From Dissostichus eleginoides (Eukaryota), in contig CM062276.1 in assembly GCA_031216635.1 (NCBI GenBank), positions 7,427,185-7,491,184 of the forward strand: a stretch of DNA of 64,000 nucleotides. Direction: 5' to 3'. The notes beneath the pieces were generated by a model, which was not told the origin of the DNA, ran no database searches, and saw only the letters and a list, made by a program, of their open reading frames with translations. The position numbers and the translations under genes were made by a program. This document shows positions 1 to 32,062 of this stretch, in pieces. Position 1 is the stretch's first letter. Each line of letters starts with the position of its first letter.

Positions 1-1585
1 AAGTCTGAAGAGTTTCTCCATTGACTTCCATGTTAAAAATGTGATGAATTATGGGATATATCTCTGGAATTATGAAAGTTATGAATGAGAAAAGTAATAG
101 CCATCGATTCCCGACCGAGCTGAACGTTTTGATGTTTGAACGGAGTTTCTGCGATGTGGAATGTGGGAGCAGAAGAGGCGCAAAATAACCCGGCGGAATA
201 ATAAAGAATTCCGTGCGTCGAAGAACAAGATAAATAACTGGCTTTCAAGTGTTGTACATTACGTGAACATTGTTGCTAGGCAACTGACAACAAAATGTGT
301 TTATTTATTTCTTAGTTATTTCATTGTTTAGGAATGGGGAAATAAGTAAAGCGAACGCGCCAGCAAGACGACCCTTCACCTGGCCTCCTTTTGGTTGAGG
401 GATTTTGAAATGGTTGTTGCACAGAAAAAATCTGAGCGCTGAGTAGAAATCTGAGAGCGGACATTTGACTAGCGCAGTCAGCTCACAGAAGCAGCCTAAG
501 TGCGAGGAGAAGGTTTTAAACTGGAAAACAGGAAATCTGTGCAAGCAGCAATATATCTGAGTTTAAGCGTACAGTTTGAGCAGAAGCAGAGCAAATCTAA
601 GCGCAAGGACAGGGTTTGACTGAAAGAAATACAAAATCTGAACGTGAAATCAATAAATTATGCTCTCAAATTGAAAGGACACTCTCTTGAATAAAGATAG
701 GGAATACCTCCATAATAAAGTAGTTTTAAAAAACGTTTTATAGAGTAGAAAACAACATTAAGCTCACTGCGGGACGTTGCAGAAATGTGTGTCCACTCCC
801 CACCACGTAATGCTGTGTTAAGGAGTCGTGTTCATTTCACGTATTTCGGTGAGACCAGGTTGCTATGCGACTTCCTGCCCGTTGAAAACTGACGCTCGAG
901 GGGTACCCAGTGTGTAATAGGGTGACGTGAAGGGGCCCTGACCGATCGTCAATATGTGACGAGTTGGTAGTGAGAATGTGATAGTGACGTTTCTGATAGT
1001 GCAACCTCCACTATCAGAAACGTCACTATCAGAAACAATGCCTGACGTGTTTTTGACGTAATATGGTCTTTGTTTACATTAGCAAGCATCGCTAACACTC
1101 AGAGCTAACCTGTACTGCAGAGAGTTTGTGTAAAAAAGCAGGAAATAAAAAAAGGAACTCACCTTGTGGTAAACCCGCAAGAAAAAAACATTTGAGCTCC
1201 ATACTGTTTCAGAAATAATCCTTGATGTGGTTTTGAACATGATATGGCGTTTCATCACGGCAGCATTTAGCTGTATCTGAGCAGAGCAGACGGACAGCTC
1301 ACCACAGAACGTGTGCCTGGTGCTCAAAAGGGGGCGGGCCAGCTGAGAGTCAGCCGTTCTCTAACAGGGCTGGAATAGAGGGATGTGAGGGATGTCTATG
1401 TTATATGTGATGTTTGGTATTTTGAGCTACGTAATGCTAAACATGTTTTTTATATATTTGTATATATCTGAGACCCATAATATATGCCTAAAAATAGCAT
1501 GATAGGAGATCTTTAAACTATGCAACCAAAAAGATTTTTCAGAAGATATTTGAGATGTTTAATAAAGTGAATGTTGTGCCTGCAG

Positions 1586-1714
1586 GTTTTTGTCACCTTT
1601 AGCTTGGGGTACGTGTTGGGAACCATCGCCTGCTTCCACAGCACATACGATGTCATCGTCACTATCGGAGCCATGCTGACCATCACTGCTGCCATCATTG
1701 CCTTCTCTGCACAG
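1586..1714 (+). pseudogene. TMBIM/Lifeguard-family exon (equivalent to exon 3 of the downstream copy), intact 129-nt exon of a degraded upstream tandem paralogue
   Basis: Acceptor ctgcag|GTT and donor CAG|GTGAGA. It encodes VFVTFSLGYVLGTIACFHSTYDVIVTIGAMLTITAAIIAFSAQ, the same length and phase as 25412-25540. Confidence 0.6.
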
Positions 1715-1758
1715 GTGAGACAACCAAAGAGCGCCTTTTCAAAATGCTTCCTGTAAAC

Positions 1759-2320
1759 CAGGGGTGTCCAAACTGTTTTCACCGAGGGCCGCATACAGAA
1801 AAATATACGAAGGGCTGGGCCACTCACTAGAGGTATTTTGCCTCATAGGCTAAGTTTTAAGACAGCAAACTCAATCAAATGTAGGTCAATTATGCTTGTT
1901 ACTTGAAAATGCTTTAAGAAACAAAACAGCACACAGCTCTCCATAGGGCTTCATTTATTATGTTGGCAGCTCATTCCCTAAAACAGAAGCCTCAGATTGC
2001 TTATTATTAGGGGAAATATGAAGGGTCTATTTCACGCTTGTTATACAAATAAGTTATTGGGCTTTTTTCTTATCAAGTTAGATTTGTTAGGAAATGTTTT
2101 CAAATGTAATTGACTGAAATTATTTAAAAGTGGGCTTATTAACACATGAATACTACTGTGTAATATATGTTTACATATATATTTAAGAAGTACAATACAA
2201 GACAAGCACAAGTTTCATTTGTGGGCCATATTCCACTATACTTTCAGAATTTGCTGAGGGCCGATTCAAAATGGTTCACGGGCCGCATTTGGCCCCCAGG
2301 CCGTAGTTTGGACACCCCTG
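1759..2320 (+). mobile_element. hAT-like MITE family A (TIR CAGGGGTGTCCAAACT...AGTTTGGACACCCCTG), copy A1, 8-bp TSD CTGTAAAC/CTGTATAC
   Basis: 16-bp terminal inverted repeats, 8-bp flanking duplication, and no coding capacity. Sits 45 bp after the TMBIM-copy-1 exon. Confidence 0.8.
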
Positions 2321-2744
2321 CTGTATACAGACATCATGTTCTGTGTTTATTATAAACAAAGGGATGCGCAGCCTTATGTATCATTTAAAAAATTAAAGCT
2401 TTTAACAGTTTCTTGTAAGGCGAACCATATTAATTAGGAGGAATTTTAAATGATGTGCTGTAAGATTCATGCTGGCATTTGCTTGAAGCTGTAAAACTGA
2501 ATGATGTAACGATAAACAACCAAAGATTTTATAGATGTGAAGTAAGAAAACTCATATGCATAAGGATATATTCGCTGTGTGGGTGGGCTGTGCAATTTGT
2601 CAGGATTATAAAATGTATTTTGTTTGCATGTTAGTGACGCATTTTCATAGACGGATAAACTGGTCATGTCTGTGATTATTGTTTTTTTTAATGTAATTTT
2701 CTTATTCTGATCATTTATTTTACTTCTCCTTAAAATAATTTAAT

Positions 2745-3900
2745 AATTTATTGATAATTTACTTTATTGATCCCAATTTGGGAAATGTTTGCATTGCAGC
2801 AGCATAAAAAGACAAGGCATTGTACATTAGAGCAGCGGTTCCAAACCTGTGAGCCGCGGCCCCCTAGTGGTCCGCGAAGGCATTGCAAGTGGGCCGCCAA
2901 ATAATTATTTTTAAATGTTATATTTTTTTATTTTGTACAGGCTAAAGACAAAAACATGGACATAACAATAACATATAGGGGATGACATTCCCATCTCAGA
3001 CAAAAACTAAAACAGAAGAAATAAAGATACAGTCAGTAGGATCACTTCAACATTTCACAAACAAAAATAGGTTGACAACCAAATACCACCAAAAACACAA
3101 CATGCTAAGCATATTTATTGTTCCTTTAATCTCACTCTTCGTTAGAGCTAATTATTTCCCATTTCATGGCGTGTTGATCCACCCTTTGATTTTTTGTGGC
3201 AATCATTTTTTCTAAAAGAAATTGTATTTTCAAACATCTACTCTTCAAACACCTTAAATTAAGATGACTCCTTGATTGACTTTTACAAATATGTATTTTA
3301 GCCAGAAGAATAGTTGTATTTATTAACTGTGTGCGGTCTTCATCTAAAAGCCCAAATAAAATATTAAAGGGTGTAAATGTAAATTCAATATTTGCCGCCA
3401 AAAATACTTTGCGAAACATTATGATTTGTGTGGAAACATTTTCATTATTAAGAATTTTTATTTTTTGAACCTCTTTTCCTTTCTCTTTCTCGATCCTCCT
3501 TAGTAACGGTCATTACAGTCCTTCACAGCGGTCTGTACTACTGGATTTACAACGTGTCACATGTTCTGAATCGACTTGAATCAGAACTTTAATTAGCCTC
3601 CGTATTGTTTATGGTTGAATGTGGGCCGCGAAAAATGTTTTGATTCTTAAGTGGGCCCTGAGTTGAAAAAGGTTGGGAACCGGTGATATAGAGAAATTAA
3701 AACCCAAGAAATAAACAATCAATAACGTAAACATCTCAAATTGAAATAAAATAGCATTAAAAAAGTAGAAAATATACATGTTGAAATACAAATTTACAGT
3801 AAAAACATTTAATGCAGGATATTATATATATAGTGTGTACGGAATGGAATATTAAATGTTAAATTGAACATAAATGTAAAATGTAACAGGTCATGTCTGT
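2745..3900 (+). repeat. Interspersed repeat family H (copy 1, carrying the nested MITE), flanked by about 90-bp direct repeats (2655-2745 / 3893-3990)
   Basis: 2745-2835 plus 3682-3900 are colinear with 19185-19460. Confidence 0.55.
2836..3681 (+). mobile_element. hAT-like MITE (TIR CAGCGGTTCCAAACCTG ... GGTTGGGAACCGGTG) nested in an interspersed repeat
   Basis: Terminal inverted repeats. It interrupts a repeat that is contiguous in the second copy (19185-19460). Confidence 0.65.
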
Positions 3901-4011
3901 GATTATTGTTTTCTTTAATGTAATTTTCTTATTCTGATTAAAAAATGTTTTACTTCTCCTTAAAATAATGAATTAATTCAACATACTCATTTATGCCTTT
4001 GTTGTTTGCAG

Positions 4012-4151
4012 ACTTACGATTTCACCATCTGGTACGGCGTGAGGCTGATTCTGACCGTGGACGCGATCATGTTTGGGTTCTTGCACGTTCTACTGCTCCC
4101 ACATCAATAACATGTCGTATCTTCCTCCACCCGCTGGGGAGTGACTGAAAC
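4012..4151 (+). pseudogene. TMBIM-family exon-4 equivalent of the upstream copy, frame-disrupted (140 nt against 144 nt; premature TAA at 4108-4110)
   Basis: TYDFTIWYGVRLILTVDAIMFGF then a shifted frame. An alternative frame gives CTFYCSH..., matching FSTFYSSY of the downstream copy. Confidence 0.5.
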
Positions 4152-4654
4152 GGTATCCACAACATACATGTACAGACACACATTCATATTCTTTTTTATA
4201 TAAACAAAAAAACAAATACAAAAAAAAGTTGTACTGTGTTTTCTGTTTTGCTGTGGATGTTCACCCTTCTCTTGGATCATTTCCAATCTTTTACCCTCAA
4301 CACAAGTTCAATTAACTAACTATATATCAAAGAACACTATAGAGCTCCACGATATACGTCTGTACCTAATCCATCTGCCGAATATATCATATATATTATA
4401 AAAAGTCCAAAGAATAGACGCTGAAATAAAGATTATAAAAAAATGTAACTCTAAATTGTTCAAGCTCAAAATTCTATATAGTTTTTTTTTTATCGGAACA
4501 AGGCTTCATGACCCAGCAGCATTGTTTTGGGTGACTCGAGGTCAAATTTGGCCCAATCAAGATTCATCTTTGACTTTAGACGCCCCTCCCCCACCCCCTT
4601 CATCAACTGTAACAATCATTTTCGCAACATGCTCCTGGTCTCCCCTCCCTCTGC

Positions 4655-4735
4655 CCCCCCTCCCCCCACAGGAACTCGACCTTTCACAAAGAATATGTAC
4701 ACTAACACTTGAACCTGAACGTGTGCCGTAATGTG
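4655..4735 (+). pseudogene. degenerate remnant of the TMBIM-family last exon (upstream copy)
   Basis: Polypyrimidine tract and cacag acceptor. Residual nucleotide similarity to 26550-26620 (...gacgtaatg...). The FLMIDCQLMMGAMSY part is deleted. Confidence 0.35.
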
Positions 4736-6885
4736 TTTTGGAGGCCATAACATTAAATTACAACAGGATTGTACGGTTATGAATGCATAATAAGTTAGTT
4801 ATGATTTAGTTAAAACAATATTGGATGATAGTCATTTTTTTTTTTGTTTTGGACTGAAATAAATCATGGGTCAAAATTGAACCGCGAGCACCATGAACGG
4901 TAACAGCTTTCGAACACAACATAAGGGTTAAAAAGATACAAAGAATAATAACATTATTTACATTTAAGATCTCTTAAAAAAAAAAGGTAATTAGCAATTC
5001 CATTAGTCCTTTTGGACTTAACATTTTAGCACAAATTTAAAATGGACAAGACAAAATGGGATATTAAACATCGCTAATTCTTGAAAACTGCTCTTACCAT
5101 TTAAAGCTGCAGTTTATCTACTGAGTGGACCTGATGGTAAGATGTTGTTTTGTAATCTGTTATTTTAAAAACGTCATATCTCAAAAACAAAAAGTAAAAG
5201 CCTTGCTCTTCATGCTGTGTACATTTGGAAAAACAATACCTGATTTCAGAATCATAATCGGGTTTATTGCTGCAGGTAAGTTCACACGTACGAGGAATTT
5301 GACTTGATGTCATGGTGTGTGCCTGAATTGCCATTTAGTTTCACTTTCATTTGGAATTCTTTGAGAAAATCTGAGATGTATGGCAACAATGGGAGGTCTG
5401 AAAACTAGCTACACACTTTTCACTCTAATTTCTGCCTGGCAACAGCTGACAATAAAAAAACGTTGGTCAAATATTCCCAAATTTGATAGCGATATGTCCT
5501 AAAGGGTCTCATCTTTGATGTTGTGCTGAGCTGTGACCTGGAAGTCCCACTATGGACGACCTCGGGCCAAATGTGAAGCAACGGGGGAGTTTCCTATTTC
5601 CTCAGACAGGAGTTCTATTTTTGTCTTCACTTCCCGCTGTCAGGAAGTGAAACTCTCCCAGCTGGGTAAAACAAGTCCAAGCGATCACAAGTCAACACGT
5701 TTCTTTTTGGATGTGCTCCTCTCACAGCAAGGTGTGGTGTCAAAAACAACGGTAATCTTCCACAAAAGGTATGTCTTTTTATTAGCCTCTATTATGTATT
5801 CTTTACTTGTTCTGTGTGAGACATAAAAGCAAATATCCAGGTGTTAACTCTGCTTCATTGTAGAATTTAGTGGTACTTTCAACAAGATAACAAATATAAT
5901 TGAATCCTTTAAATATTCTATTATTCATTCAGATTACAAACAAATATATGTTGATATTTGCTCCTGCTATTTTGTACTCATGAAGATGAAGCATAATGCT
6001 TTCCCTTTTTTCCTCGGTTCTCGCTCAGAATGAAATATTCAAAATGTTTGCCATTTTTTAAACGAAAAGAAAATATGATACATTTTTTGTAAATTATGTC
6101 TATTGACCAGAAAAGGAATTGTAACTTGAAATATTGAGTTAGAATGAAGTTGCCTTAAAAGCTGTGACAAAGAATTGGGTGATGTTTTATCATAAATGCT
6201 TTATAAACACATGCCATAGAATAAGGAAAATATTTAAATGTGTTGTATTATCCAAATGCCCAATTTTGCTTTGGTTTACTGCAACCAGAAAATCCTTTAA
6301 GATTGAGTTGTTTGATAAATCACTGAATTTGAACCAATGAAATAAGGACGCAACAGAGTCCCAACCCAAAGAAAAGAACATGCCGTTAGAAACAACTTAA
6401 CTAGGAAATATTAATTTCAGCTCTTTCAGGAAGATACACAAAGGTTACAAAATAGTTTTTTTTAAATCAACGGTTATATTAAATTGATGGATATAGTCTG
6501 TTAAAGAATCAGTTTAGTGATATTCTGTATTTTCTTCTAGATAGGAAATATAAACAACTTTACTAGCAACATTTGACCCCTTTTAGGAAGAAACAAGTGC
6601 AGGACACTAAATATTATATGAATCAACAGTTAATGAGAAATAAACTCGGAATAGATTTTCAATAAAATATACTTTATTTGTTCTTTCACAAATGTAACCA
6701 GGTGCTTTTCAATAAAGGCTATCCTGAACCCAGATAGCAAAACAAATCAATAACTCAAATATAATTAGTACTTGAATTTCTCTTTGTAGTTGCCTTGTGT
6801 GAAGTCTTTAAAAACAAACACATTGTTGGTTTTGTTGTGCAAATTGTCCCAACTGCCCATTCTAACAGTATAATTTAAGGTTCAG

Positions 6886-6891
6886 GTTTAT
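6886..6891 (-). promoter_or_regulatory. AATAAA polyadenylation signal (minus strand) about 25 nt past the ERCC6L stop
   Basis: Plus-strand tttatt at 6886-6891, immediately 3' of the stop at 6916. Confidence 0.4.
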
Positions 6892-6915
6892 TTTTTACGT
6901 ATCAGGATTGTTTTG

Positions 6916-9900
6916 TTAACTTCTCTGGCTCAGCTGCCGGTACAGTTGGATGGTCATGAGCTGAACTTCAGGATCTCCAGGTTGGATGTCGATAGCTCTG
7001 AGGAAGCAGCTCAATGCGTCGTCAGGCTTGCCTTTGCTCTGGTACTCCTTCCCTCTCCTGACCAGGGCTCCGAAGCTCTCCACCTCGGACAGGATGCCGT
7101 TACTGCTCAATTTGACTCCATCAGCCGTGCACTGATCCATTTGTTCGTCGGAGGCTAGCTCGGGCTCGCTGGCCGACTCCTCCATGTTGCTGGTCATTTC
7201 CTGTTCGGACTCCTCAACATCATCTACTGACTCTGAGTACTCCTCATCATCCTCCTCTCCTTGTACATCTGCCTCCTCTTCTTCCACATCCTCCTCGCCC
7301 TCTGTCTCAAGGGTCTCCTCCACCTGAAGCTCATCATGAGTCAAACCAATGAGGTCCTCTTCTGCTTCGTCAGAATGCCTTTCTGAAACATCATCTTCTT
7401 CTTCCTCCTCCTCACTGGTAATTTCTTGGTTGTCTTTGATTTTCTCCATATCTTTGACGATGGATAGAATGACGGATCGGCATGAGGCCACGGAGGTGTT
7501 GCCTCCGACGCTCTTTCTTGACCGAAGAGGAGTGCGGACAGATGACACCAATTTAGGTGTGGAGGCGCCAAGAACCTGAAAGGAATTGTCCAGGTGACTC
7601 CTGTCATCTTGATCACTGCTGCTCTTTTTTTCTTCTTAGTCACAATGGAATTATCCATTGAATTGTCCATTACAGAGCTGTTGCCGTTGAAGCTTTGGCT
7701 GACTGCTTTCTTATGTTGTTTCTCAGAAAGAGATTTATTTATGTTAAAACTCCCCTCCATCTGCAGCTGTGACAGCAGCTCCCTCTCCTCTTATTCAGTT
7801 TCCAGATTATCCAGATCATCGTGGTCTGAGAGCATGTCACTATCTTCAAGCTGTAAATTGAAGCTGCCTCCAAAGGAATCAAGCCCTGTGCTGACGTTGG
7901 ATGATGTGTCTGCTTTGAAGCTTGAAGTGGAAGCTTGCAAGACAGAAAGTGTTTTATTCTGCAGGGCTGTTAAATGTGAGAGGCCCAAGTCCGTCTTGGA
8001 AACGTTTCTTGAGTGTGAAGTTTTGTTTGAAAGTTGTTGGTCTTCATCAGCTGCTGTAACGTAGGCCATGCTGCCGTCACTTGCCGAATCATTAGCAGCT
8101 CCACACAGAGAAACCTCGTCTCTTAGTTTTTGATTGGAGGCATCTGCCATTTCACCTAATTCAGCATCACTTGTATCAGAGACCAGATCAGAGAGGAGAA
8201 TTCATCGGCTACCAAGTAACTCCTCTCCTGTTTAACAGACACTGTTTTGGAGAATAAAGGTTCTGCTCAACAAGCTTGTCCTGGCTTACTTCTACGACAG
8301 GATGTTCTTCTGACATACCCTAATCTGCATTAAGATCAATAACATGGCCTCTCAGATTCTGTTGGGCGTCCTCCTCATCAGAACCAGACTGGTCCAACTC
8401 TATCACGACTGGTGACCCGTTAGAGTTACTATCATGCTGTGGATGGGAAGGACTTGGTTTTGGATTTCTTGTTTTTTTCTCATGAGTCTGCTCTCTGATG
8501 TGGTTGTCCGCTGGTTGTCTGAGCCAGGCTGGTTCTGTGTTTGATGTCAAACTTTCTGCCATCTGCATCTGTAACTCTGACTCAGCCTTCATCAGCTCCT
8601 GGGCCTTCTGCACTCTCCCTTCAATGTACTGATGGGCCTCTTGGTCTTCAGGGTCATCATCGTGGTTGACATCGAGGGAAAACATGAGGTCATGGTCAGA
8701 GATCCCAAAAATCTCCATGGTCTGGAGTTGGGCAATGTGTTCGTCCAGTTCAGCGTCTGTCCTTCGGTGTCTGGAGTGCAGGGATTGAAGTTGCAACTGA
8801 GTGCATGAGGACCTTGTGTCCTTGAGGAGGAAGAGCTCTTTCAACTCCTGCATGCTGAAGTACCTAAAAGGGTTTTTCTTGTCCCCGGTATTTTGTCTAA
8901 TGAGAGAGTCTTTGAAGACCTGCCTTCTGTAGATCTTCTCCTCTACTGTGCCGCAGGTGATTAGTCTGTAAACGACAACATTTTCGCTCTGCCCAATGCG
9001 ATAAGCCCTGTCAACAGCCTGGGCGTCTGTTGCTGGGTTCCAGCTAGGATCGTAGATCACGACTCGGTTTGCTGCCGTCAAAGTGATACCAACCCCTCCA
9101 ACCTGGTTGGTCAGGAGGAAGACAGAGTAGCTTTTGTCTGTCTGGAACTTAGTGATTAGCCTCTCTCTCTCTCTGCAAGCTGAATTATTGTGCCATCCAA
9201 TCTCAATACTTTGAAGCCTCTGTTGCCCAGGATGCGCTCGATGATGTCGAGCACTTTCCTGTAATGAGCAAAGACAAGCGTGCGGTGACCTTCTTCTCTG
9301 AGCCTTTGGAGAAGTGCAAACAGAAAGACGAGCTTCCCTGACTCAGATATTAAGGTCTCGTCTGGAATGTTGGCGATGGTGCCTGTCTCCATGTTATCAT
9401 TCTGCTGACCTTGAGCTGTACTTTCTTCTAAGCCTAACTTGGCTATGTCTGCAGCAGAGAGCAGTCTTGGATGGTCGCACAACTTTTTCATTATGTTCAG
9501 TTCAGCTAGAGGTGATCTGGTTGTCATGAGCAGCTCCTTGATGTGGTCAAGTGAAAGGACCTGCCTGTAAATATCTTCCTGAACAGGACTAAGGTAAGTC
9601 CAGACAATTAAGTCGTTCTTTCTAGTCAGTGTTGGCATGACTGCGCCAGAGTCTTTTGGAATATTTTGGACTTTGCCGTCCTTGGTCTCTGAATCTTCCT
9701 CTTTACAAGGAAGTTGGCCTTCCTTATTGTTTTTCTGCACTTCTGCTTTTGTCCTGCGGAGGAAGTAGGGTTTGATTATGGCCATGAGGTTCTCAGACAT
9801 TCGAGACCCGAGGGCCTTTTCCCCTGGAGTGGTGTCCTTCTCTCTGGCCCGGGTGATTGGGTTCTCATACTCCGTTTTGAAGGTTTTAGCTGTGCCTAAG

Positions 9901-10668
9901 AGAGTTCCTTGGCAAGCAAAGTCAAAGAGAGCCCACAATTCCTTCAGGTTGTTTTGGACTGGAGTGCCAGTCAGGAGAACTCTGTTTTTTGAAGGAATGG
10001 CGTAGGCACTTTTGGCTGTTTTGGTAGTTGAGGATTTTATCTTGTGTGCCTCATCTAGGATCATGTAGTCCCATGTGAACTCTTTGCCATTGTAAGATGA
10101 CAATTGCTGCCAGTTATTCATAAGCATTGTGTACGTGGTGATGATAACACCACTTCTCCTCTGAATTTTCTCCAAATTCCTGGTCCTCTCCTTGCTCGAT
10201 CCGTGAAACTCCTTCACCCTCATGCCAGGAGTCCATTTGGCAAACTCCTTGGTCCAGTTTGTGATGAGAGAAGTTGGCATGACCAGCAGTGTGTGCTTAG
10301 CCAGCTCGTTGTCATACATGCTTGAGAGGAATGATATCACCTGGATGGTTTTACCAAGGCCCATGTCATCTGCCAAGATCCCACCTTTACGTCCATCTCT
10401 GCAGAGACTGTACAAGAAGGCGACTCCATTTCTTTGGTAGTCATAAAGCTTGTCATACAACTCTTTGAAAAGCATTAAGCCGCTGCCGTTAACATTCACA
10501 AACTCTTCATCTTCTTCCTCTGAGTCATTCTGAGCAAGAAGTTCTTCAATTGTCTTTATCTGGCTTTCAAGTTTTTGACTCTGGTGAATTTTGTACGCCA
10601 GTTTGAAAAACTTCAGCGCTTGGTTCATATCGCCTTGTCTGGCAACATCTTTTCCCTCTTGAATGAAT
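6916..10668 (-). CDS. ercc6l: ERCC6L/PICH-like SNF2-family DNA translocase, main coding exon (N-terminal TPR, SNF2 ATPase DEAH box, helicase-C, long acidic C-terminal region ending in a TPR-like motif); reading frame interrupted several times
   Basis: A 513-aa intact ORF (9156-10697) carries GILADDMGLGKT, DEAHKIK and LLTGTPVQNNL motifs. The 8320-9081 ORF carries the helicase-C motif YRIGQ...VVVYRLITCGTVEEKIYRRQVFKDSLIRQ. The C-terminus ...CFLRAIDIQPGDPEVQLMTIQLYRQL is colinear with human PICH. A splice acceptor ttgttcttccag at 10669-10680 defines the exon start. Stop codon at 6916-6918. The reading frame is broken at a (GA)n run at 9159-9174, around 8150-8320 and at an A8 run at 7622-7637, and there are in-frame TAG (8320-8322) and TAA (7791-7793) codons. 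Confidence 0.85.
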
Positions 10669-10812
10669 CTGGAAGAACAAAAAAAAGACAAGAACATCAG
10701 AGAATAATTAATTAAAAAATAAATGTAGTCTGAAGAAGAGCTGCTACTAAGTATTTACAAATGTTAATTTCAATACATAGTAATTTGACAATTCATAAAA
10801 TGTATGCATTTA

Positions 10813-10930: not shown

Positions 10931-12508
10931 TACAGGTGCATCTCAATAAATTAGAATATCGTGGAAAAGTAAATTTATTTCATTAATTCAATTCAAAAAG
11001 TGAAACTCATATTATATGGATTCATTACACACAAAGTGAAATATTTCATGGCTTTATTTGTTTTAATCTTGATGATTACGGCTTACAGCTAATGAAAACA
11101 CAAAAATCAGTATCTCAGAAAATTGGAATATTGTGAAAAAGTTCAATATTGTAGACTCACGGTGTCACATTCTAATCAGCTAATGAACTAAAAACTCCTG
11201 CGAAGGTTTCCTGAGCCTTTAAATGGTCTCTCAATCTGGTTCAGTAGGCTTCACAATCATGGGGAAGACTGCTGACTTGACAGTTGTCCAGAAGACAGTC
11301 ATTGACAGGGTAAGCCTCAAAAGGTCATTGCTAAAGAAGCTGGCTGTTCACCGAGTGCTGTATCCAAGCATATTCATAGAAAGTTGAGTGGAAGGAAAAA
11401 GTGTGGTAGGAAAAGGTGCACAAGCAACAGGGATAACCGCAGACCTGAGAGGATTGTCAAGCAAAGGCCATTCAAAAATGTGGGGGAGCTTCACAAGGAG
11501 TGGACTGAGGCTGGAGTCAGTGCATCAAGAGCCACCACGCACAGACGTATCCAGGACATGGGCTACAACTGTCGCATTCCTCGTGTCAAGCCACTCCTGA
11601 ACCAGAGGCAACGTCAGAAGCGTCTTACCTGGGCTAAGGAGAAAAATAAATGGTCGATTGCTCAGTGCTCCAAAGTCCTCTTTTCAGATGCAAGTACATT
11701 TTGCATTTCATTTGGAAATCAAGGTCCCAGAGTCTGGAGGAAGAGTGGAGAGGCACACAATCCAAGTTGCTTGAAGTCCAGTGTGAAGTTTCCACAGTCA
11801 GTGATGATTTGAGGAGCCATGTCATCTGCTGGTGTTGGTCCACTGTGTTTTCTCAAGTCCAAAGTCAACGCAGCAGTCTACCAGGACATTTTAGAGCACT
11901 CCATGCTTCCTTCTTCTGACAAGCTTTATGGAGATGCTGATTTCATTTTCCAGCAGGACTTGACACCTGCCCACACTGCCAAAAGTACTAAGACCTGGTT
12001 TAGTGACCATGGAATTACTGTGCTTGATTGGCCAGCAAACTGGCCTGACCTGAACCCTATAGAGAATCTATGGGGTATTGTCAAGAGGAAGATGAGAGAC
12101 ACGAGAGCCAACAATGCAGACGAGCTGAAGGCCGCTATCAAAGCAACCTGGGCTTCCATCACACCTCAGCAGTGCCACAGGCTGATCGCCTCCATGCCAT
12201 GCCGCATTGATGCAGTCATTCATGCAAAAGGAGGCCCAACCAAGAGTTGAGTGCATACACATGAACATACTTTTCAGAAGGCCGACATTTCTGTATTAAA
12301 AATCCTTTTTTTTATTGGTCTAATGTAATATTCAAATTTTCTGAGATACTGGTTTTTGGGTTTTCATTAGCTGTAAGCCGTAATCATCAAGATTAAAACA
12401 AATAAAGTCTTGAAATATTTCACTTTGTGTGTAATGAATCCATATAATACATGAGTTTCACTTTTTGAATTGAAATAAATTAACTTTTCCACGATATTCT
12501 GATTTATT
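10931..12508 (+). mobile_element. Tc1-like DNA transposon copy 1 (defective; right TIR truncated) in ERCC6L intron 1
   Basis: Left TIR TACAGGTGCATCTCAATAAATTAGAATATCGTGGAAAAG and an inverted partial right TIR at 12484-12508. Internal transposase homology. Confidence 0.85.
11259..12250 (+). pseudogene. Tc1 transposase coding region, copy 1 (internal deletion or frameshift near the N-terminus and an in-frame TGA at about 11810)
   Basis: MGKTADLTVVQKTVID... then ...KKCGRKRCTSNRDNRRPERIVKQRPF...SVMI*GAMSSAGVGPLCF...DLNPIENLWGIVKRK... gives the DDE(34E) signature. Confidence 0.8.
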
Positions 12509-12593
12509 GCGATCGATCGAAAGGTTAAGCAGAAGAGAAACCTTAGAAGATTTCCATAAAAAGGTGTTTTTTTTTTTTTGCTGGCAAGGAACG

Positions 12594-12645
<52 letters not shown>

Positions 12646-12676
12646 CTCTCCTCTCTCTCTCTTCTCTCTCCTCTCT

Positions 12677-12709
<33 letters not shown>

Positions 12710-12746
12710 CTCTCTCTCTCTTCTCTCTCTCTCTCTCTCTCTCTCT

Positions 12747-12843
<97 letters not shown>

Positions 12844-12893
12844 CTCCTCCTCTCTCTCCTCTCTCTTCTCCTCTCTCTCTCTCTCTCTCTCTA
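12594..12893 (+). repeat. About 300-bp compound (CT)n/(CTCTTCT)n polypyrimidine microsatellite in ERCC6L intron 1
   Basis: An uninterrupted pyrimidine strand for about 300 bp. Confidence 0.95.
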
Positions 12894-14753
12894 AAGTACT
12901 GAAAATAATGCTGATTTCACCCAGCCCATTGTAATGTATTCCCATTCTTGATACTTTTAAATCAAAAAGGTAGTTAGGTTCCCATTTACTCGCATATGAC
13001 AAAAGAAAAGCATCAAATTCAAACAACATTCGAAGCTGGAACCATCAAATGCTTGGAATTCTTGCTTAATAAAAGCTCACCCAAACATACTCACAATCTA
13101 ATTAGATAAATTACATTCAACTGATCAGTGTTTGACCTTGTTATTGTGTTTAAACTGTTACTTACATTGTGTTCCACTCTTACTCGGTTGCTGCTATAAT
13201 ACCTGAATTTCCCAACGGGGATCAATAAAGGTCTATCTTATTTTTATTGATTTCAATTATTTGCGTTAGGCTTAAGTACAGACACTCGATCGCTGAAGTT
13301 GACTGTCAAATAATTGTAATATCACTATTAAATGATTAAAATGATTTTAATCATTTTTGAGGTTGCTAATAGCTGTTTAGGTTAGTATTTACTAATTCAT
13401 TTTCTAAAAAGAACAACTTAGTCAATTCTTGTAATTAGCACAAGTCTTTATGATAAGGTTCAGGTGGACTTGCCTTTACCACATTTTCACACAAGTACCC
13501 TGATAACTGCTGGTCAATATATTTCACTACACACAAAGTGAGCTGTCAGAGGACACTTCAAATTTAGGCAGAACCAGTTATCCTTTGAGATGAAACAGGA
13601 TTTGTCAAATAAAAAGGAAGCTGTTAGACAACCTTTCCAATCGGCACTGACAATCTATGAAACTATCACCCTAGAGAAATGAGGAGGGGGTAACTTTATT
13701 GGTTAATCAAATAATAATTTCAATTTGAGCCTTAGTGCTAGGGTGGACAGTTGAAACTTAATTCATAAAGCTGTCCTAAGTCAACATTCAAATGGTGTGC
13801 AACTTTATTTTGAGGTATTCAATTTAAGCTTTACACGTGTGTTGTCATACTTTACGGCATCATTATATTTGTAAAAGATTGTGGCAAAAAACTGTTTTTG
13901 TAATTGTGGTTATATCATTGTAATTTATGATGCTGTTAGATCACTGCAAGACAGAAAATATATAATAATAATATTATTTTTGAAAGGCTCAACATAATTT
14001 TGGATTGAAGAAGAATATTAAGTTTGATTAAAAACCTCAGAATTGTAGTTAATGACTACTTTTGGATGTTCTTTGGACATTACCATGCTCTGGCAGTTGC
14101 TGGAATCTAAGTCTATTATATAGAAAATACAATTATTATTATCATACAAGTGTAGCCTTAGCCTATGTGTCCTACCTTGACTGAAATAAAGAGCGGTTCT
14201 GCTTATGTAATAATTTTTTTAAGTAACATGATATCAGACTAAAGGAGTTTTACGGAAACACCTCCACTATTCAATTTCCTTTTGAACCACTGTATTTATA
14301 ACAACTTTTAGAGCAACTATTAAATGTACAATTTAAATAAACTCAGGACGGTAAATATTTTAACAATGTGGCATGTATAAAGATCTGCATTATTTTTTTA
14401 CTTAGTGTTACCTTTGGTAGGTTTCCATCTTGTCTTCTGTATCCATGGACCTTTTGAGACAAAAACAGGGTTAGAAACACCGTCACATATCAGAATCAGA
14501 ATCAAGTTTATTGCCAGGTAGTTTTTCACATACTAGGAATTTGCTTTGGTATCTGGTGGTGCGAACATAAACAATCTAAAAAAATAAGTTGCAAAGAAGG
14601 TAGAAAAAAAGAAATATATAAGGATAATAAAAAATAAGTATTTTAAAGAAACAATTTAGCATTAAAAAGGGATGCTAAAGACAAGTATTTACACCAAATG
14701 TAAATGTAACTATACAAATAACCTTAAAGCTAAAAAACAAAAACACCTAGGAC

Positions 14754-15619
14754 TAGTGATGTGTCGGTCGCGAACGAGCCGATTCTTTTGAACGGCTCTT
14801 TGGTACGAACGAGGGGAACCGAGTCGTACTTGGTGAGAGCCGTTCTTGTTATCGCTCAATCGTTGGTCCGCACTCACTGCCTGCCAAAATCCACTCGCCT
14901 TTTAAAAAGCTTGATTTTGTTCCCCAAACGTATTCTGTGAAGACCCCCCCCCCCTACTCTGATTGGTAGGTTTCAGCACGAGGAGTGAGATGGGGTGGGT
15001 CTTAACGGAATACGCGCGAGAGAGAATTCATAACACGTGGTACAGGACAGGTAGACGACGTGTTTTTCGGATGGAAAATGAGCCAAACGCGAAAACGCAG
15101 CAGCCTTTGGAGGCACTTCAACCAAAACCCAGGCAGTGATAAAGCGCACCATTTGTAAAGGCTAAATATCCTTTAAAGCAGGGTCAACAAATAATCTCCA
15201 TCGCCACTTAAAAACACAGTATTGTAGTGCCGTCCGTGTAGCAACCTATCCCACAGGTGAATTATGTTCCACTAGGTGTCACCACAGTATCTAATATTAA
15301 GAGTTGCGTGAATTTCATTCAAGGCAAGGCCACTTTATTTACTTAACACATACAGAGGGTAAATTCAAAGTAGTACATTCACTGACATGAATGACATGGA
15401 TATGGCGCCACCTTGTGTCATGTTTACAATGCAGATTATTGACATTAGGTCTGGCAATACAGTCAATCATTATCCTGGTGATTATTTCGCAGATAAACCT
15501 AGTAACCCCGCCCCCCTTAAAAAAAACGGCTCTTTTGAACAGCTCTTTTGAACGGCTCTTTGAAAGGAACGGAGCCATAAGATCCGGCTCCCTTCAAAGA
15601 GCCATAATTCCCATCACTA
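14754..15619 (+). mobile_element. TIR DNA-transposon family C (termini TAGTGATG...CATCACTA; subterminal GAACGGCTCTTTG repeats), copy C1 with 8-bp TSD CCTAGGAC/CTTAGGAC
   Basis: 866 bp. Inverted termini with internal subterminal repeats. hAT-like TSD length. In ERCC6L intron 1. Confidence 0.75.
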
Positions 15620-16460
15620 CTTAGGACAATGAGTATATATGGCAAACTACAGTGTATTATATTTTAAAGAATACTGTTGACACACCTGTAATTTATATAT
15701 AATTATCACATGTATATACAGGGTTTCCCACAAAGACTTTACTTGGGCGGGCCGCCCAGGTATATTAACGGCCGCCAAAGTCTGCCTCACACAGGGTGAC
15801 AGGCTGTCAACATGATGTGGCCTGCCGACATGGCCACTGTCATACAGATCATAAATCAAAGCCCTTAGGCGCTTTCACACCGGAGTACTTTTCCCCGTAC
15901 TTTTCCCGTTTAGTTCCTGGGATTTTGCGTTCACACCAAAAAGAGAACTTGGTTCATGAGAACTTTTACCCCCTTTTTAGTGCCTGCTAGCGAGGTGGTA
16001 CTTTCCTGGGGAGAAAAAAGTTCCAATTTCTGATTGGCTGGGCGAATTGCAAACCATGCCCGTAAAACTCGGAAAAGTTTTGTGAAGCCGCCATTGTATT
16101 TGCTGACATTAGCATTATTAGCATTAGCCCCGCGCACCAACGGAGAGAGAATAACTTATGGCAACACAAAAAAAACATGGGAGGTGGAGTGATACGAAAA
16201 AAATTAACATAAAAGTGGCTAGACTTTGAGTAATGTTAACCTGTGGGGCGTTAGCACTGATGCTAAGTATGCCATCCGGGACACCGACGTTAACTTTACT
16301 CACTTTTCTAGTTTCTTGGAAATCTCCTCAAATTCGCCGTTGTGTTGAGTTATCTATCCTGTGTGTTAGTTTTTCCACGAATAACAAACACAATTCGGGA
16401 ATTTTTCGGTAGAAGAACCGCACAACACACCGATAGCTGCTGCTGCTGAGAGGAGTTAAC

Positions 16461-16495
16461 CTCCCCGCCAAATAGTGACTCTGAAGGAACTTCAT
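16461..16495 (-). CDS. ercc6l: candidate ERCC6L exon 1 (MKFLQSHYLAG, phase 2 donor AG|GTTAAC) joining exon 2 to give ...HYLAGRFIQEGKD
   Basis: ATG followed by 11 codons and a GT donor. The phase completes the AGA codon at the exon-2 acceptor. HYL-R aligns with human PICH ...AAHYLRYVKEAKE. The assignment rests on this short alignment plus phase fit only. Confidence 0.4.
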
Positions 16496-17822
16496 CTTCT
16501 TCTTCTTCTTTGTTTAATGGCGAGTCGCAACCACTTGGAGCATTATCGCCACCTACTGTTGATTTATTGAATCTTCAAGTTAAATCTTTGTCCTCAGACC
16601 AGTGTTTTTGAGAAACTTGAAGATCAGTTTGTGAACTTCATTTCTTGAGTTACTTGCAAATATTGACTTGAAATTCATGTCCTTAATGTTATGTTGTTCC
16701 ATTGCAGTTTTCAGAATGAGTCTTTGCCTTGTATATTCCGGGCAGCTAAAAAATACATGATTTATTGTCTCTGATTGTTGGCAACCATCACAATTGCCAG
16801 TTGAATGTTTTCCAATCAGATGCAGTGATGAGTTTAATCCGGAGTGACCAAATGTATCCTTCTGATAATGTTCTGTTCTCTTCTATTACTCCCCCAAGTG
16901 CTTTCCATTCCTACTTCTCTTTGTATCTGGTATAAATGTCTTCCTTTAGTGTTACTTTCCCATAACTTTTGCCATTGTTGCTTGATAATAACTTTCGTAA
17001 ATTATTTTACTTCTGCCCTACTGATAGGTAGGCTACTGTTAATTCAATCTAATTGGCTTTCAATCCATTTTTTGCCAGTTGATCCACTACCTCATTACCT
17101 CTAATACCCACATGCGCAGGAATCCACACAAACTGAACAACAATTCCCAAATGTACTACTAGACCAAACTAAGTTTAACAATAGTTGCAATTTGACTGGA
17201 AAACAATACAGAAGTTAAGTAAAACAGTAACCGTCTGTACACACAAACTGAAAGATTGACAATAAAGTTGACTTTGAATTGACTTTGAACTTCCTAGTTT
17301 ATCTGCTTGACATAAGTCATCCCATGAAACTAATGTTTGCATCACTTCCCTTTTTCTTTGACTGAACTTCTGTGTTTGACCCAAATTTTCCTCCAGCATG
17401 TCCGATACAACAGACCCCTCACATCCAGATACACACAGGTCTCTCAACAGGAATAAAATCCAACCTAATTTCTCAACTGTCTTTTTGAATGATAAATAAA
17501 GCAGGTCAAGCTCTTCTCTGTTTCTTTCTGATGCTGGCCATGCTGCTTCTTGTTTCTGACCTCTATCTACTTTCTTGCGTTGGCTCCCGCTAACAGCAAA
17601 CAAGGATACTTTTAACTTTACTGCAGGTGGTCAAAACATTAACTGCTGATCAAACAGCTCCACAACTTAATGAGTAAATGATATACAATAGATGTTAGCA
17701 GAAAGTACTTCCCATTTCCCACTTCAGCTGCTGAGCAGAATTGATCCTTTTTGACTAATGTTTGCATCAGTTTCCTTTTTCTTTGACTGAACTTCTGTGT
17801 TTGACCCACATTTTCCTCCAGC
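16496..17822. promoter_or_regulatory. Putative bidirectional promoter interval between ERCC6L exon 1 (minus) and the TMBIM gene start (plus)
   Basis: Head-to-head gene arrangement only. No motif evidence beyond the gene orientation. Confidence 0.3.
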
Positions 17823-17890
17823 ATGTCCGATACAACAGACCTCCTCACATCCAGAGAAACACAGCAGGCTCCTGGTGATGATGCATCCTC
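17325..17890 (+). repeat. Local tandem duplication of the TMBIM 5' UTR and start region (copy a 17325-17460 degenerate, copy b 17752-17890 contains the real ATG)
   Basis: About 130 bp at 95% identity, including ...TTTGACCCA(A/C)ATTTTCCTCCAGCATGTCCGATACAACAGAC.... Copy a reads MSDTTDPSHPDTH... and terminates early. Confidence 0.75.
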
Positions 17891-18086
17891 TCTACCAACG
17901 CCCTACCAAGGAGAGCAACCTCCACCCTACTCTGCAGCCAAAACAGACACAACTTGGACAAAACAGTCTAGCACTGGGTACGAGTCTTTCCGGGACATCA
18001 TCCCAGAACGTCTGTCGGACACAACTCCACTGATCGCCTCGTCTTCTTTCGATGACAAGATAGTGAGGAGAGCGTTTGTTAGAAAG
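17823..18086 (+). CDS. TMBIM/Lifeguard-family protein (FAIM2/GRINA/TMBIM1-like), exon 1: Pro-rich N-terminus with PPPY motif, ending ...FDDKIVRRAFVRK
   Basis: ATG at 17823, 88 codons, donor AAG|GTTTGT. RRAFVRKV matches the conserved RRxFIRKVY motif of FAIM2/GRINA. Confidence 0.8.
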
Positions 18087-18330
18087 GTTTGTCCGATTCA
18101 GAGTTTAAACTTTTCGCTACTATTTTTTATTTGTATTTGTTTTATTTTACCTTTATTTAACCAGGATAGGTCTCATTGAGATTACACATTTCTATTTTTC
18201 AAGAGAGTCCTGGCCCAAGAATGGTAACAGCACAGTTACAGACAATTTTAAAACACACAATCACAACACAGTCATACACCAAGTTTAGCCAAAGCATTTA
18301 CAGCCACAGCGGCTTCAAGGTCAGTTATGG

Positions 18331-19047: not shown

Positions 19048-19184
19048 ATTAGAGTCGCTTTTAGTCTGTTTAATGAGACCAGCTCTCTGAGTTTCAGCTC
19101 AATTTGAAGATGGTTCCAAGCTTCAGGAGCAGCGTAACGGAACGCCCTCTTCCCCAGTTCAGTACGGACTAAGATAAGAAGTAC

Positions 19185-32060: not shown

Positions 32061-32062
32061 CT

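Follow-up and report, generated by a model that had tools for sequence, protein, structure and literature searches.

The window analysed here, 64,000 nucleotides of Dissostichus eleginoides DNA, carries on its minus strand this species' copy of ERCC6L/PICH, at a locus common to all cryonotothenioids. The gene had been named as ERCC6L in a first-pass annotation, and its domains and closest relatives agree. Almost all named relatives among the protein-search matches listed are ERCC6L orthologues (fishes, amphibians, reptiles, birds). The helicase is 81% identical to that of stickleback ERCC6L, and ERCC6/CSB was seen just as the distant best PDB match, not as the closest relative. The parts of the gene, in window coordinates, are as follows.

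16303–16357, minus strand: ERCC6L coding exon 1, with the canonical N-terminus MDNSQHNGE.EEISKKLEK
14412–14446, minus strand: ERCC6L coding exon 2, MDTEDKMETYQR, which carries the next in-frame ATG
6916–10668, minus strand: ERCC6L large last exon, ancestrally 1265 codons plus stop, in the window spread over four reading frames (ORF list, tblastn)
9696–10439, minus strand: SNF2-related ATPase N-lobe, frame open (Pfam PF00176, residues 115–362 of KAI9544328.1, E = 1e-65)
8992–9320, minus strand: Helicase_C lobe (Pfam PF00271, residues 488–596 of KAI9544328.1, E = 2e-24)
7552–7569, minus strand: GASTPK, an S-T-P motif read from the sequence, 3' of all stops
6973–7068, minus strand: C-terminal TPR, its own frame still open (Pfam TPR_1, residues 162–192 of ORF 6916–7551, E = 2e-6)

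This layout is that of vertebrate ERCC6L/PICH, with nearly all coding sequence in one large last exon and the domain order N-terminal TPR, SNF2-related ATPase, Helicase_C, long low-complexity middle, S-T-P motif and C-terminal TPR. The N-terminal TPR gives a weak match (TPR_12, residues 47–68, E = 1e-3), Helicase_C is likewise matched by window ORF 8320–9081, and the C-terminal TPR_1 is also found in KAI9544328.1 (residues 982–1012, E = 1e-7; window 7068–6973). After the helicase, where the PICH family domain (PFD) was expected, no Pfam model matched, and a segment there, YFS.QELKELF...GISDHDLMF, is well conserved among fishes. A PDB sequence search for a PICH structure returned other SNF2 enzymes only, and the middle and C-terminal parts of fish ERCC6L had no solved counterpart in it. 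The best matches, CSB/ERCC6 and Rad26 (E = 1e-91), share the SNF2 ATPase fold family but belong to a separate subfamily, and no solved chain matched outside the ATPase core. GASTPK, a putative counterpart of human Plk1-docking T1063, is kept in N. brichardi, Pagothenia and D. mawsoni. In human PICH, T1063 has a Plk1-docking role (PMC8565832). The exon 2 ATG is the annotated ERCC6L start in Pagothenia and the icefishes; immediately 5' of it, D. eleginoides has a 6-bp in-frame deletion. A processed retrocopy is ruled out by the retention of exons 1 and 2 and both introns, with GT/AG boundaries.

The toothfish gene lies between lifeguard-1 genes, whereas in other percomorphs ERCC6L lies beside an ADAM gene, its downstream neighbour in Micropterus, Channa and Larimichthys. 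In Cottoperca the order is lifeguard-PARP-Rsm22 without ERCC6L, and in Zoarces the two lifeguard genes have consecutive locus tags. ERCC6L thus came to lie between two lifeguard-1 paralogues (a and b) by an insertion specific to notothenioids. The first-pass annotation had considered a decaying duplicate from the teleost whole-genome duplication. This does not fit an insertion that is absent from Cottoperca, the ADAM linkage in three other percomorphs, the 96–97% identity to the ERCC6L of other cryonotothenioids, or a locus that is annotated ERCC6L in every cryonotothenioid examined, with long open frames in several. Within the window, no second ERCC6L copy was found over 50 kb upstream or 7 kb downstream, and the ADAM exons of the three percomorphs had no match. 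The lifeguard-1 locus gave the sole ERCC6L model recovered in D. eleginoides (two annotations), D. mawsoni, Pagothenia, Chaenocephalus, Pseudochaenichthys, both Champsocephalus species and Pogonophryne. This absence of a further copy carries little weight, as the protein searches returned no match longer than about 1130–1200 aa, so that an intact copy of about 1270 aa would be invisible there; they returned no T. bernacchii ERCC6L protein, although a 1258-aa model is known from the locus.

The stops and frameshifts in the second half of toothfish ERCC6L are real mutations. They are listed below with three neighbouring features that bear on their reading.

8320–8322, minus strand: TAG nonsense codon (GAG>TAG), D. 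eleginoides-specific, in both assemblies
8242–8243, minus strand: 1-nt deletion junction AAAACA-GTG, in both D. eleginoides assemblies and D. mawsoni
8187–8188, minus strand: 19-nt deletion junction CTCTGA/TCTGGT, identical in D. mawsoni
7791–7793, minus strand: TAA nonsense codon (GAA>TAA), D. eleginoides-specific, in both assemblies
7603–7615, minus strand: net 22-nt loss, D. eleginoides-specific, the third real frameshift
7625–7631, minus strand: A7 run (KKKK), not a lesion, the same run being present in species with an open frame
9161–9174, minus strand: (AG)7 run, +2 frameshift, one unit longer than in six of six other sequences including GCA_025770515.1
7576–8343, minus strand: 768-nt 'intron' of GenBank model KAI9544328.1, covering all five lesions

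Both stop codons lie where the first-pass annotation had placed them, and each is one G>T change of a Glu codon. The TAG (8322–8320) terminates ...NLRGHVIDLNAD; its site reads GAG in Pagothenia and T. bernacchii and AAG in the icefishes. Beyond it the unchanged frame runs on for 77 nt (GMSEEHPVVEVSQDKLVEQNLYSPK), and colinearity, which had been said to resume in another frame some 120 nt later, does so at about 130 nt by way of the −1 and −19 deletions. The TAA (7793–7791) breaks ...DNLETE-stop-EERELLSQLQMEGSF, and its site is GAA in all five other species. The 22-nt loss is readable as 13 + 9 nt between short direct repeats or microhomologies, CAGT and GATGA; here D. mawsoni and Pagothenia retain GTAATT(T/G)ATGAC(A/G)GTGATCAAGATGATGTTGATGAC. 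Of the claim that at least three more frameshifts are present, the number stands (−1, −19 and −22) but the positions and causes do not. The supposed A8 homopolymer at 7622–7637 is a run of seven at 7631–7625, through which D. mawsoni and Pagothenia read (KKKKRAAVI...).

All five lesions (TAG, −1, −19, TAA, −22) are present in a second D. eleginoides assembly, GCA_025770515.1. Over 3.9 kb, seven SNPs and a single 2-bp indel set it apart from the window, and the flanks diverge by 0.3–2%. It is therefore a separate assembly, and the lesions are not assembly errors. Two of them are also shared by D. mawsoni, so that the suspicion of real decay at 7600–8330 was well founded. The five fall within 713 of the 3750 nt of the exon (P = 0.0055 under uniform placement), and all fixed lesions of the large exon are 3' of codon 781. 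Introns as the cause of the frame changes were rejected, since the frame runs on through these positions in Pagothenia, in T. bernacchii and in the reconstructed ancestor.

The majority-rule ancestor of the notothenioid sequences has a single open frame of 1265 codons, and therefore all lesions are derived. D. mawsoni has the −1 and −19 junctions and is without the TAG, the TAA and the −22, which places the beginning of the break in the toothfish ancestor. Its assembly has about 25 1-nt deletions in 3.8 kb, so small indels in it are unreliable, and our reading uses only its 19-nt junction, which is unaffected, and its base substitutions. On its own, the shared −1 would for this reason be weak evidence. 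In T. bernacchii, codons 1–1001 form one clean ORF without a private indel, and the RefSeq product at the same locus is 1258 aa long. Long open frames also occur there in Pogonophryne albipinna (1131 aa), Champsocephalus esox (1093 aa) and Pseudochaenichthys georgianus (1071 aa).

These other cryonotothenioid genes resemble that of the toothfish in locus, in flanking lifeguard-1/PARP genes, in sequence (nucleotide identity 96–97.5%) and in relaxed constraint (omega ~0.3–0.55 vs 0.13). They differ in having kept long open frames, with changes that are mostly in-frame deletions. The icefishes have a 60-nt deletion and share with Pogonophryne a 420-nt deletion that removes GASTPK (a 140-aa segment), and in P. 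georgianus the C-terminal TPR is lost through a −26 frameshift. Outside Dissostichus, all indels seen in at least two assemblies are multiples of three (60, 6, 420 and 42 nt), and Dissostichus alone has mid-exon frameshifts that at least two assemblies confirm. Small frameshifts in Pagothenia (+1, +1) and Chaenocephalus (−2, +1) are without counterpart in their closest relatives, T. bernacchii and P. georgianus, and are of the 1–2-nt type typical of long-read errors. A pseudogene that was dead since the cryonotothenioid ancestor is ruled out: no lesion is common to several families, the frames of T. bernacchii, Pogonophryne and C. esox are open, and the multi-assembly indels there are in frame.

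Beyond 7600–8330, further lesions are found in a repeat within the helicase and at the 5' end of the gene. The (AG)7 run leads to truncation at LAERERG and a stop after 503 codons, in the window assembly only. The probable source is an assembly artefact, with polymorphism as the alternative. The artefact reading follows from its absence from six other sequences and from the mis-sizing of a neighbouring repeat: the window is short by 2 bp in a (GT)n run (~20580) inside a highly conserved lifeguard-1 exon, as no other assembly is. The earlier suggestion of a mixture of real and artefactual lesions thus applies to this (GA)n +2, which lies beyond the range then considered, but not to the five lesions at 7600–8330. 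The exon 1 start codon (16357–16355) is changed from ATG to ATA in the window only. Exon 1 is also put out of frame by the loss of 2 bp at 16350/16349, where both D. eleginoides assemblies read ATGGATAA--CTCAAC; D. mawsoni is in frame (ATGGATAACTCTCAAC), a reading that agrees with exon 1 as found in Micropterus, Channa and Larimichthys. Compared with vertebrate ERCC6L/PICH, the toothfish frame is cut by two stops and three deletions, and its canonical start is frameshifted.

With (AG)6 the frame stays open for 781 codons up to its first stop, or for 818 if the TAG is reverted; the N-terminal frame meets 26 stops ahead of the tail. The largest product predicted from the locus would have about 793 aa (12 + 781 codons) and comprise the N-terminal TPR and the SNF2 ATPase. 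It would be without the last ~470 residues (ancestral numbering), including the STP motif and the C-terminal TPR. This TPR is still encoded yet is beyond the reach of translation from the N-terminal frame, and GASTPK is untranslatable from that frame without splicing. The public annotations of the toothfish gene, a 513-aa stub cut short by a probable assembly error and a 1031-aa model, are both misleading. KAK1879004.1 (D. eleginoides) is identical to window ORF 9156–10697. The 1031-aa model hides five real lesions in an invented intron: KAI9544328.1 goes from ...NLRGHV straight to LGASTPK..., with the donor CAT/GTTATT and the acceptor ttcctttcag/GTT.

Constraint on the helicase was assessed from the substitution pattern. 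Between the notothenioid ancestor and Larimichthys or Channa, helicase-core dN/dS is 0.12–0.14. In codons 1–776, the D. eleginoides-specific changes are 13 nonsynonymous (N) and 3 synonymous (S), with P = 2e-5 under an omega of 0.13. This ratio is compatible with neutrality, although the counts are small and the one-sided 95% lower bound on omega is ~0.5. The cryonotothenioid lineages all have raised dN/dS, totalling 80 N : 47 S, or an omega of ~0.5 compared with 0.13 in the long term, and the D. eleginoides ratio is not different from this clade-wide value. The dN/dS comparison proposed in the first-pass annotation thus rejects 0.13 and does not set the D. eleginoides branch apart from the clade as a whole. 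Four replacements in the toothfish lineage (G116S, F370V, A407D and T522N) are at positions conserved in 87–95% of 100 metazoan ERCC6L proteins. G116S is toothfish-ancestral, being common to D. mawsoni, and T522N lies in LLTTQVGGVG, motif V. The coding exon of the window diverges from Pagothenia by 2.5%, equal to non-coding divergence (1.9–3.7%), and the substitution rate of the helicase part (0.69%) is close to that of the decayed part (0.74%). Small as they are, the counts suggest that the toothfish helicase differs from that of other vertebrates in evolving at a neutral N:S ratio.

We propose that the locus was broken in the toothfish ancestor and has decayed further in D. eleginoides, that the extra (GA)n unit is most likely an error, and that the gene is a pseudogene in progress; we put the probability of this reading at roughly 80%. 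The −1 and −19 deletions would have arisen in the poorly conserved middle of the gene before the two toothfish species split, ending translation after ~818 large-exon codons. D. eleginoides would later have gained the two nonsense substitutions, the 22-nt loss and the 2-nt frameshift right after the canonical start. Nonsense-mediated decay would not be expected for such transcripts, as every lesion falls either within the last exon or upstream of the second ATG. We favor a pseudogene in progress over a trimmed working gene because helicase replacements accumulate at a ratio compatible with neutrality on the D. eleginoides branch. Counting against it are the helicase part (2.3 kb), without a fixed disabling lesion in GCA_025770515.1, and the C-terminal 660 nt, which are lesion-free and back in the N-terminal frame (−1 −19 −22 = −42). 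The Pich knockout is embryonic lethal in the mouse (PMC8565832), so outright loss of PICH is a priori unlikely unless there is a second copy.

Such a second copy is central to one alternative, which we consider credible at somewhat less than even odds. ERCC6L may have been copied, not moved, to the lifeguard-1 locus, with an intact copy remaining ADAM-linked and the window copy free to decay as a redundant young paralogue. The essential role of PICH in the mouse would be accommodated, as would the raised dN/dS in every cryonotothenioid lineage. The ADAM-linked position in other percomorphs, together with the gene order in Cottoperca and Zoarces, marks the notothenioid position as a lineage-specific insertion, and gene relocations usually begin as duplications. 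An ERCC6L duplicate with a dead copy does exist in Channa striata. However, the multiple-of-three indels outside Dissostichus argue for selection on the copy at the lifeguard-1 locus, where frames of more than 1000 codons are open in T. bernacchii, Pogonophryne, C. esox and P. georgianus. Moreover, the only ERCC6L model recovered in the listed notothenioids is the one at this locus (in a database that lacks longer proteins), and no other copy appears in the window over 50 kb upstream or 7 kb downstream. It is also conceivable, but in our judgement unlikely, that the gene is truncated and still working, and that a PICH of ~793 aa, with the TPR, the SNF2 ATPase and the conserved post-helicase segment, keeps translocase function while just the disordered middle and the tail are discarded. 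The clustering of the fixed large-exon lesions past codon 781 (P = 0.0055) and the intact helicase ORF of GCA_025770515.1 are what such a gene would look like. Premature stops in a last exon escape NMD, so the mRNA should too, and C-terminal losses are tolerated in relatives (the GASTPK segment, and the TPR in P. georgianus). Set against this are the 13 N : 3 S of the D. eleginoides branch, a ratio that fits neutrality, the replacement of conserved helicase residues, including T>N in motif V, a helicase substitution rate equal to that of the decayed part, and a start region that is damaged as well.

The restored C-terminal frame is what a rescue by splicing would require, in which 8343–7576 would now be an intron and a 1031-aa protein would link the helicase to the STP motif and C-terminal TPR. 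The GenBank model KAI9544328.1 depicts exactly this. Its 768-nt segment is a multiple of three and holds all five lesions, the acceptor ttcctttcag/G is good, and the tail is lesion-free and in the N-terminal frame in the (AG)6 allele. We nevertheless regard this as very improbable. The donor CAT/GTTATT is without the −1G, the +3 purine and the +5G of the MAG/GURAGU consensus, and in D. mawsoni, where the −1 and −19 are already present, AT takes the place of the donor GT. A lesion-free tail beside three lesions in the equally long preceding stretch has a P of only ~0.12. Homology-driven gene predictors routinely invent introns that bridge frameshifts, and the model of the neighbouring gene skips the (GT)n error. 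That the stops and indels are instead errors of the window assembly has almost no chance of being right, even though this assembly mis-sizes dinucleotide repeats ((GA)n at 9161–9174 and (GT)n at ~20580) and the long exon has frame breaks in other long-read fish assemblies (about 25 single-base gaps in D. mawsoni, 4 frame changes in Larimichthys and 4–6 in Channa). An independent assembly with different SNPs shows five of the six large-exon lesions unchanged, which refutes an artefact for the TAG, the TAA, the −1, the −19 and the −22; two are common to two species, and long-read errors do not take the form of G>T nonsense changes or of 19- and 22-nt deletions.

For the pseudogene in progress, one parallel is the tandem ERCC6L pair of Channa striata, in which copy 1 has five in-frame stops. 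It too is a decaying percomorph copy with in-frame stops and several frame changes, and its dN/dS is 0.7–1.1 against its neighbour. The two cases differ in that Channa has its partner copy in the same locus, at a distance of 11 kb, and none is visible within the toothfish 64-kb window. A search of the literature for ERCC6L in notothenioids or for teleost pseudogenes found nothing relevant. Notothenioids have other lineage-specific pseudogenes of conserved genes, icefish globin loss being an example. Like them, the toothfish locus is a gene conserved elsewhere that deletions and nonsense changes have inactivated, as a derived state confined to one clade. Unlike in the notothenioid examples of gene loss, we know of no phenotype or ecological link for PICH.

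PICH coats ultrafine anaphase bridges, helps to resolve them and recruits Plk1 (PMC8565832). A bolder and rather doubtful proposal is that Dissostichus lacks any functional PICH and is a natural knockout for this mitotic DNA translocase, set in an erosion of the gene that spans the Antarctic notothenioids. The erosion series behind it consists of an about four-fold relaxation of helicase constraint, deletion of the Plk1-docking segment (plunderfishes, icefishes), loss of the TPR (Pseudochaenichthys) and relocation of the gene. If a second intact copy exists, the toothfish locus is an ordinary young pseudogene. Should the toothfish have no recognisable PICH locus other than a truncated or dead one, PICH as a whole, or at least the Plk1-docking part and the C-terminal TPR, would be dispensable in some cellular contexts, and truncation or loss of toothfish PICH, if true, would hint at compensating pathways. 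The cryonotothenioids form a graded series of natural deletion variants that can show which parts of PICH matter: the gene is intact in Trematomus, lacks the STP segment in Pogonophryne and the icefishes, lacks the C-terminal TPR as well in Pseudochaenichthys, and is truncated after the helicase in Dissostichus.

ERCC6L, which encodes the mitotic helicase PICH, lies on the minus strand of the window from 16.4 kb to 6.9 kb. Its coding sequence occupies two short exons at the 5′ end and a large final one:

about 16357-16303, minus strand, exon 1
14446-14412, minus strand, exon 2, MDTEDKMETYQR
10668-6916, minus strand, large last exon

The large exon is broken into ORFs of 513, 253, 119, 139 and 211 aa in differing frames. 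The 513-aa ORF resembles ERCC6L of many vertebrates in a protein search (81% identity to stickleback) and is identical at every residue to KAK1879004.1, a D. eleginoides protein from a 34-Mb contig. Pfam domains in ERCC6L follow the order SNF2-related ATPase, Helicase_C and C-terminal TPR. Another assembly of D. eleginoides (GCA_025770515.1) agrees with the window at 98-99.8%. The two are independent samples of one species, because seven SNPs and one 2-bp indel separate them in the 3.9-kb gene region. Intron 2 contains Tc1/mariner-like transposase ORFs (11223-12250, plus strand, split into two frames); the insertion is also found in Pagothenia and T. bernacchii, and a copy about 75% similar to the element lies at 43411-45025. 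The ER-rich and LS-rich ORFs of 118-220 aa on both strands at 12367-13029 were rejected as a gene, as they belong to a long (GA)n-type microsatellite.

The exon was aligned with those of Pagothenia borchgrevinki, Chaenocephalus aceratus, Pseudochaenichthys georgianus, D. mawsoni and Trematomus bernacchii, giving the following lesions:

8322-8320, minus strand, TAG stop after ...HVIDLNAD
8243/8242, minus strand, 1-nt deletion
8188/8187, minus strand, 19-nt deletion, junction CTCTGA|TCTGGT
7793-7791, minus strand, TAA stop after ...DNLETE
7615-7603, minus strand, 22-nt loss

Both stops lie where the first-pass annotation had placed them, and each is a G>T change at a Glu codon. Its count of three frameshifts also holds, but their positions and causes differ. 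The supposed A8 homopolymer is an A7 run (7631-7625), which D. mawsoni and Pagothenia share and read in frame through KKKKRAAVI(Y/D)D..., so it is ruled out as the third frameshift. The 22-nt loss is responsible instead, and is best read as 13 and 9 nt gone between two short repeats, CAGT and GATGA. All five lesions are present in the second D. eleginoides assembly; they are therefore real, and the suspicion of genuine decay is upheld.

The lesions are clustered (P = 0.0055). With an (AG)6 repeat upstream, the frame runs for 781 codons to its first stop, the TAG; with this reverted, it is closed after 818 codons by the 1-nt deletion. The original frame persists 77 nt beyond the TAG before the 1-nt and 19-nt deletions shift the reading, and 26 stops interrupt the N-terminal frame from the TAG to the tail. 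Most simply read, the sequence 3′ of the first frameshift lost its coding role early, and release of the helicase part came later or stayed incomplete. Since 3.4-4.5% of random substitutions in this sequence create a stop, two stops in roughly 25 D. eleginoides-specific changes are unremarkable for neutral DNA.

A sixth lesion, an additional AG unit at 9174-9161 leading to LAERERG*, is found in the window only. The neighboring gene, protein lifeguard 1 (GRINA/TMBIM), shows a similar defect: in its strongly conserved exon at 20527-20760 (plus strand), 2 bp are missing from a (GT)n repeat at about 20575-20590, which breaks the frame. All other assemblies (the second D. eleginoides assembly and three other species) are in frame here, and the GenBank model of the window assembly (P0169) bypasses the spot. 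The (GT)n deletion looks like a dinucleotide-repeat assembly error. Because the (AG)7 is confined to the window and the neighboring repeat is also mis-sized, we treat it as a probable error of the same kind, the alternative being a rare allele. KAK1879004.1 is the 513-aa stub that results from this probable error. The mixture of real and artefactual lesions that had been suggested thus fits, with five real and one probably artefactual. The D. mawsoni assembly (GCA_011823955.1, L008 7427-11250) has about 25 single-base gaps in 3.8 kb relative to all other species; these are spurious, the assembly having a high indel error rate. Its gene models at ERCC6L are fragments of 181 and 406 aa.

Reconstructed by majority rule from the notothenioid sequences, the ancestor has a single open frame of 1265 codons. 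T. bernacchii, with a high-quality assembly, has one clean ORF over codons 1-1001, no private indels, and an annotated product of 1258 aa. D. mawsoni carries both the 1-nt deletion and the CTCTGA|TCTGGT junction; it has GAA in place of the TAA, lacks the TAG and retains the 22 nt. Given its spurious single-base gaps, the shared 19-nt junction is the solid cross-species evidence. From these shared deletions and the open ancestor, the frame was broken first in the toothfish ancestor, with D. eleginoides adding the remaining lesions. Exon 1 is also damaged. A 2-nt deletion directly follows codon 3 (16357-16349, minus strand) in both D. eleginoides assemblies, whereas D. mawsoni keeps the frame at this point and agrees with exon 1 of other percomorphs. 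In the window only, the canonical start codon is ATA, and the D. eleginoides model KAI9544328.1 (P0122) starts at a non-canonical upstream ATG in a shifted frame. In Pagothenia, Chaenocephalus and Pseudochaenichthys, the exon-1 segment (window 16544-16193 equivalent) was not found within 10 kb upstream; the intervals equivalent in position are L001 6905-9245, L002 8263-9113 and L006 5383-6649, respectively. Their models begin at the exon-2 ATG, and this clade may have lost or replaced exon 1.

Over the long term (ancestor versus Larimichthys or Channa), the helicase core has evolved with a dN/dS of 0.12-0.14. The dN/dS comparison proposed in the first-pass annotation, with substitutions assigned to branches by parsimony across seven sequences, gave 13 nonsynonymous and 3 synonymous changes in codons 1-776 on the D. 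eleginoides branch. This rejects an omega of 0.13 (P = 2e-5) and fits neutrality, but it does not set the species apart: all cryonotothenioid branches are elevated (80 N : 47 S in total, omega about 0.5), and D. eleginoides is therefore statistically inseparable from its relatives. Replacements in the toothfish lineage include G116S (toothfish-ancestral, also in D. mawsoni), F370V, A407D and T522N (LLTTQVGGVG motif), at sites conserved in 87-95% of 100 ERCC6L proteins. Between the window and Pagothenia, the exon (2.5%) has diverged as much as the intron and the downstream DNA (1.9% and 3.7%).

The frames of Pogonophryne albipinna (1131 aa) and Champsocephalus esox (1093 aa) run uninterrupted to the natural ...LSQRS end, and P. 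georgianus (1071 aa) is open apart from near the end, where a private 26-nt frameshift removes the C-terminal TPR. Pogonophryne and the icefishes, C. esox and P. georgianus among them, share a 420-nt in-frame deletion of the GASTPK (S-T-P) segment, seen in DNA for the icefish loci (L002 about 14034-14036; L006 about 14990-14992) and in proteins for Pogonophryne and C. esox (P0286, P0288). Icefishes share an additional 60-nt in-frame deletion. Private 1-2-nt frameshifts in Pagothenia and Chaenocephalus are absent from the close relatives of each and may be assembly errors. Most of the clade has thus kept the locus open under weakened constraint, and several lineages are trimming its C-terminal half. 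Dissostichus alone has the middle of the exon broken by lesions found in more than one assembly.

The gene order in the window, common to all cryonotothenioid loci fetched, is lifeguard-1b (C-terminally truncated), ERCC6L on the opposite strand, lifeguard-1a (full length), a PARP gene and Rsm22. The flanking paralogues are:

1-4270, plus strand, lifeguard-1 paralogue
17300-25550, plus strand, lifeguard-1 paralogue

Exons of the PARP-family gene (WWE/WGR/PARP domains in orthologous loci) and the Rsm22-like gene occupy 28035-43176 (minus) and 45964-47725 (plus), syntenic with Cottoperca and T. bernacchii. In Cottoperca gobio, an early-branching non-Antarctic notothenioid, the locus reads lifeguard-PARP-Rsm22 with no ERCC6L sequence there and just a b-like lifeguard gene beside PARP (L009). 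Zoarces has two lifeguard genes with consecutive locus tags. In Micropterus, Channa and Larimichthys an ADAM gene follows ERCC6L; no ADAM exons occur within the window. Together these arrangements show that ERCC6L came to lie between the two lifeguard genes by insertion in the notothenioid lineage, introns and 5′ exons included, through a lineage-specific relocation or duplication. Such an insertion excludes the teleost-WGD duplicate proposed earlier, and the introns and 5′ exons rule out a retrocopy. In Micropterus dolomieu the ADAM-linked gene (L003 15834-17113) lacks ~2.8 kb from the center of the large exon (window 10057-7241 equivalent), and the annotated 402-aa product fuses N-terminus to C-terminus.

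What remains functional in D. eleginoides can be apportioned only roughly. We give a probability of about 0.3 to there being no other ERCC6L copy and no function. The likeliest scenario, if short of even odds, is that this copy is redundant and an intact gene lies elsewhere. ERCC6L duplicates do occur: Channa striata (L004) has tandem copies at 2400-7200 and 14000-18200, 11.6 kb apart, and copy 1, with five in-frame stops, six frame changes and dN/dS of 0.7-1.1 against copy 2, is dead. Among ERCC6L protein-database matches, none is longer than about 1130 aa, so a full-length copy would not have shown up there. It is rather unlikely that no other copy exists and the truncated helicase works. 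At most, the toothfish locus would yield a product of about 793 aa that keeps the N-terminal TPR and ATPase and lacks the STP motif and C-terminal TPR. Human PICH binds partners through TPRs at its two ends, and binds Plk1 via Cdk1-phosphorylated T1063 (PMC8565832). NMD would not be expected, because the premature stops are all in the last exon.

Rescue by splicing is very improbable. KAI9544328.1 (1031 aa) joins ...NLRGHV to LGASTPK..., taking 8343-7576, with all five lesions inside, as an intron. The 768-nt segment has a good acceptor, and the three deletions total -42, which keeps the tail in frame. However, the donor CAT|GTTATT has no -1 G, +3 purine or +5 G of the consensus, and D. mawsoni has AT instead of GT. 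In our view the intron is an annotation device, with a small probability of being real.

In toothfish, the cryonotothenioid ERCC6L locus has genuinely been inactivated in a lineage-specific way, or has at the least been severely truncated, and the window adds one probable assembly error. As it stands, the locus reads as a young non-processed pseudogene; the finding would be notable only if no intact PICH remains genome-wide.
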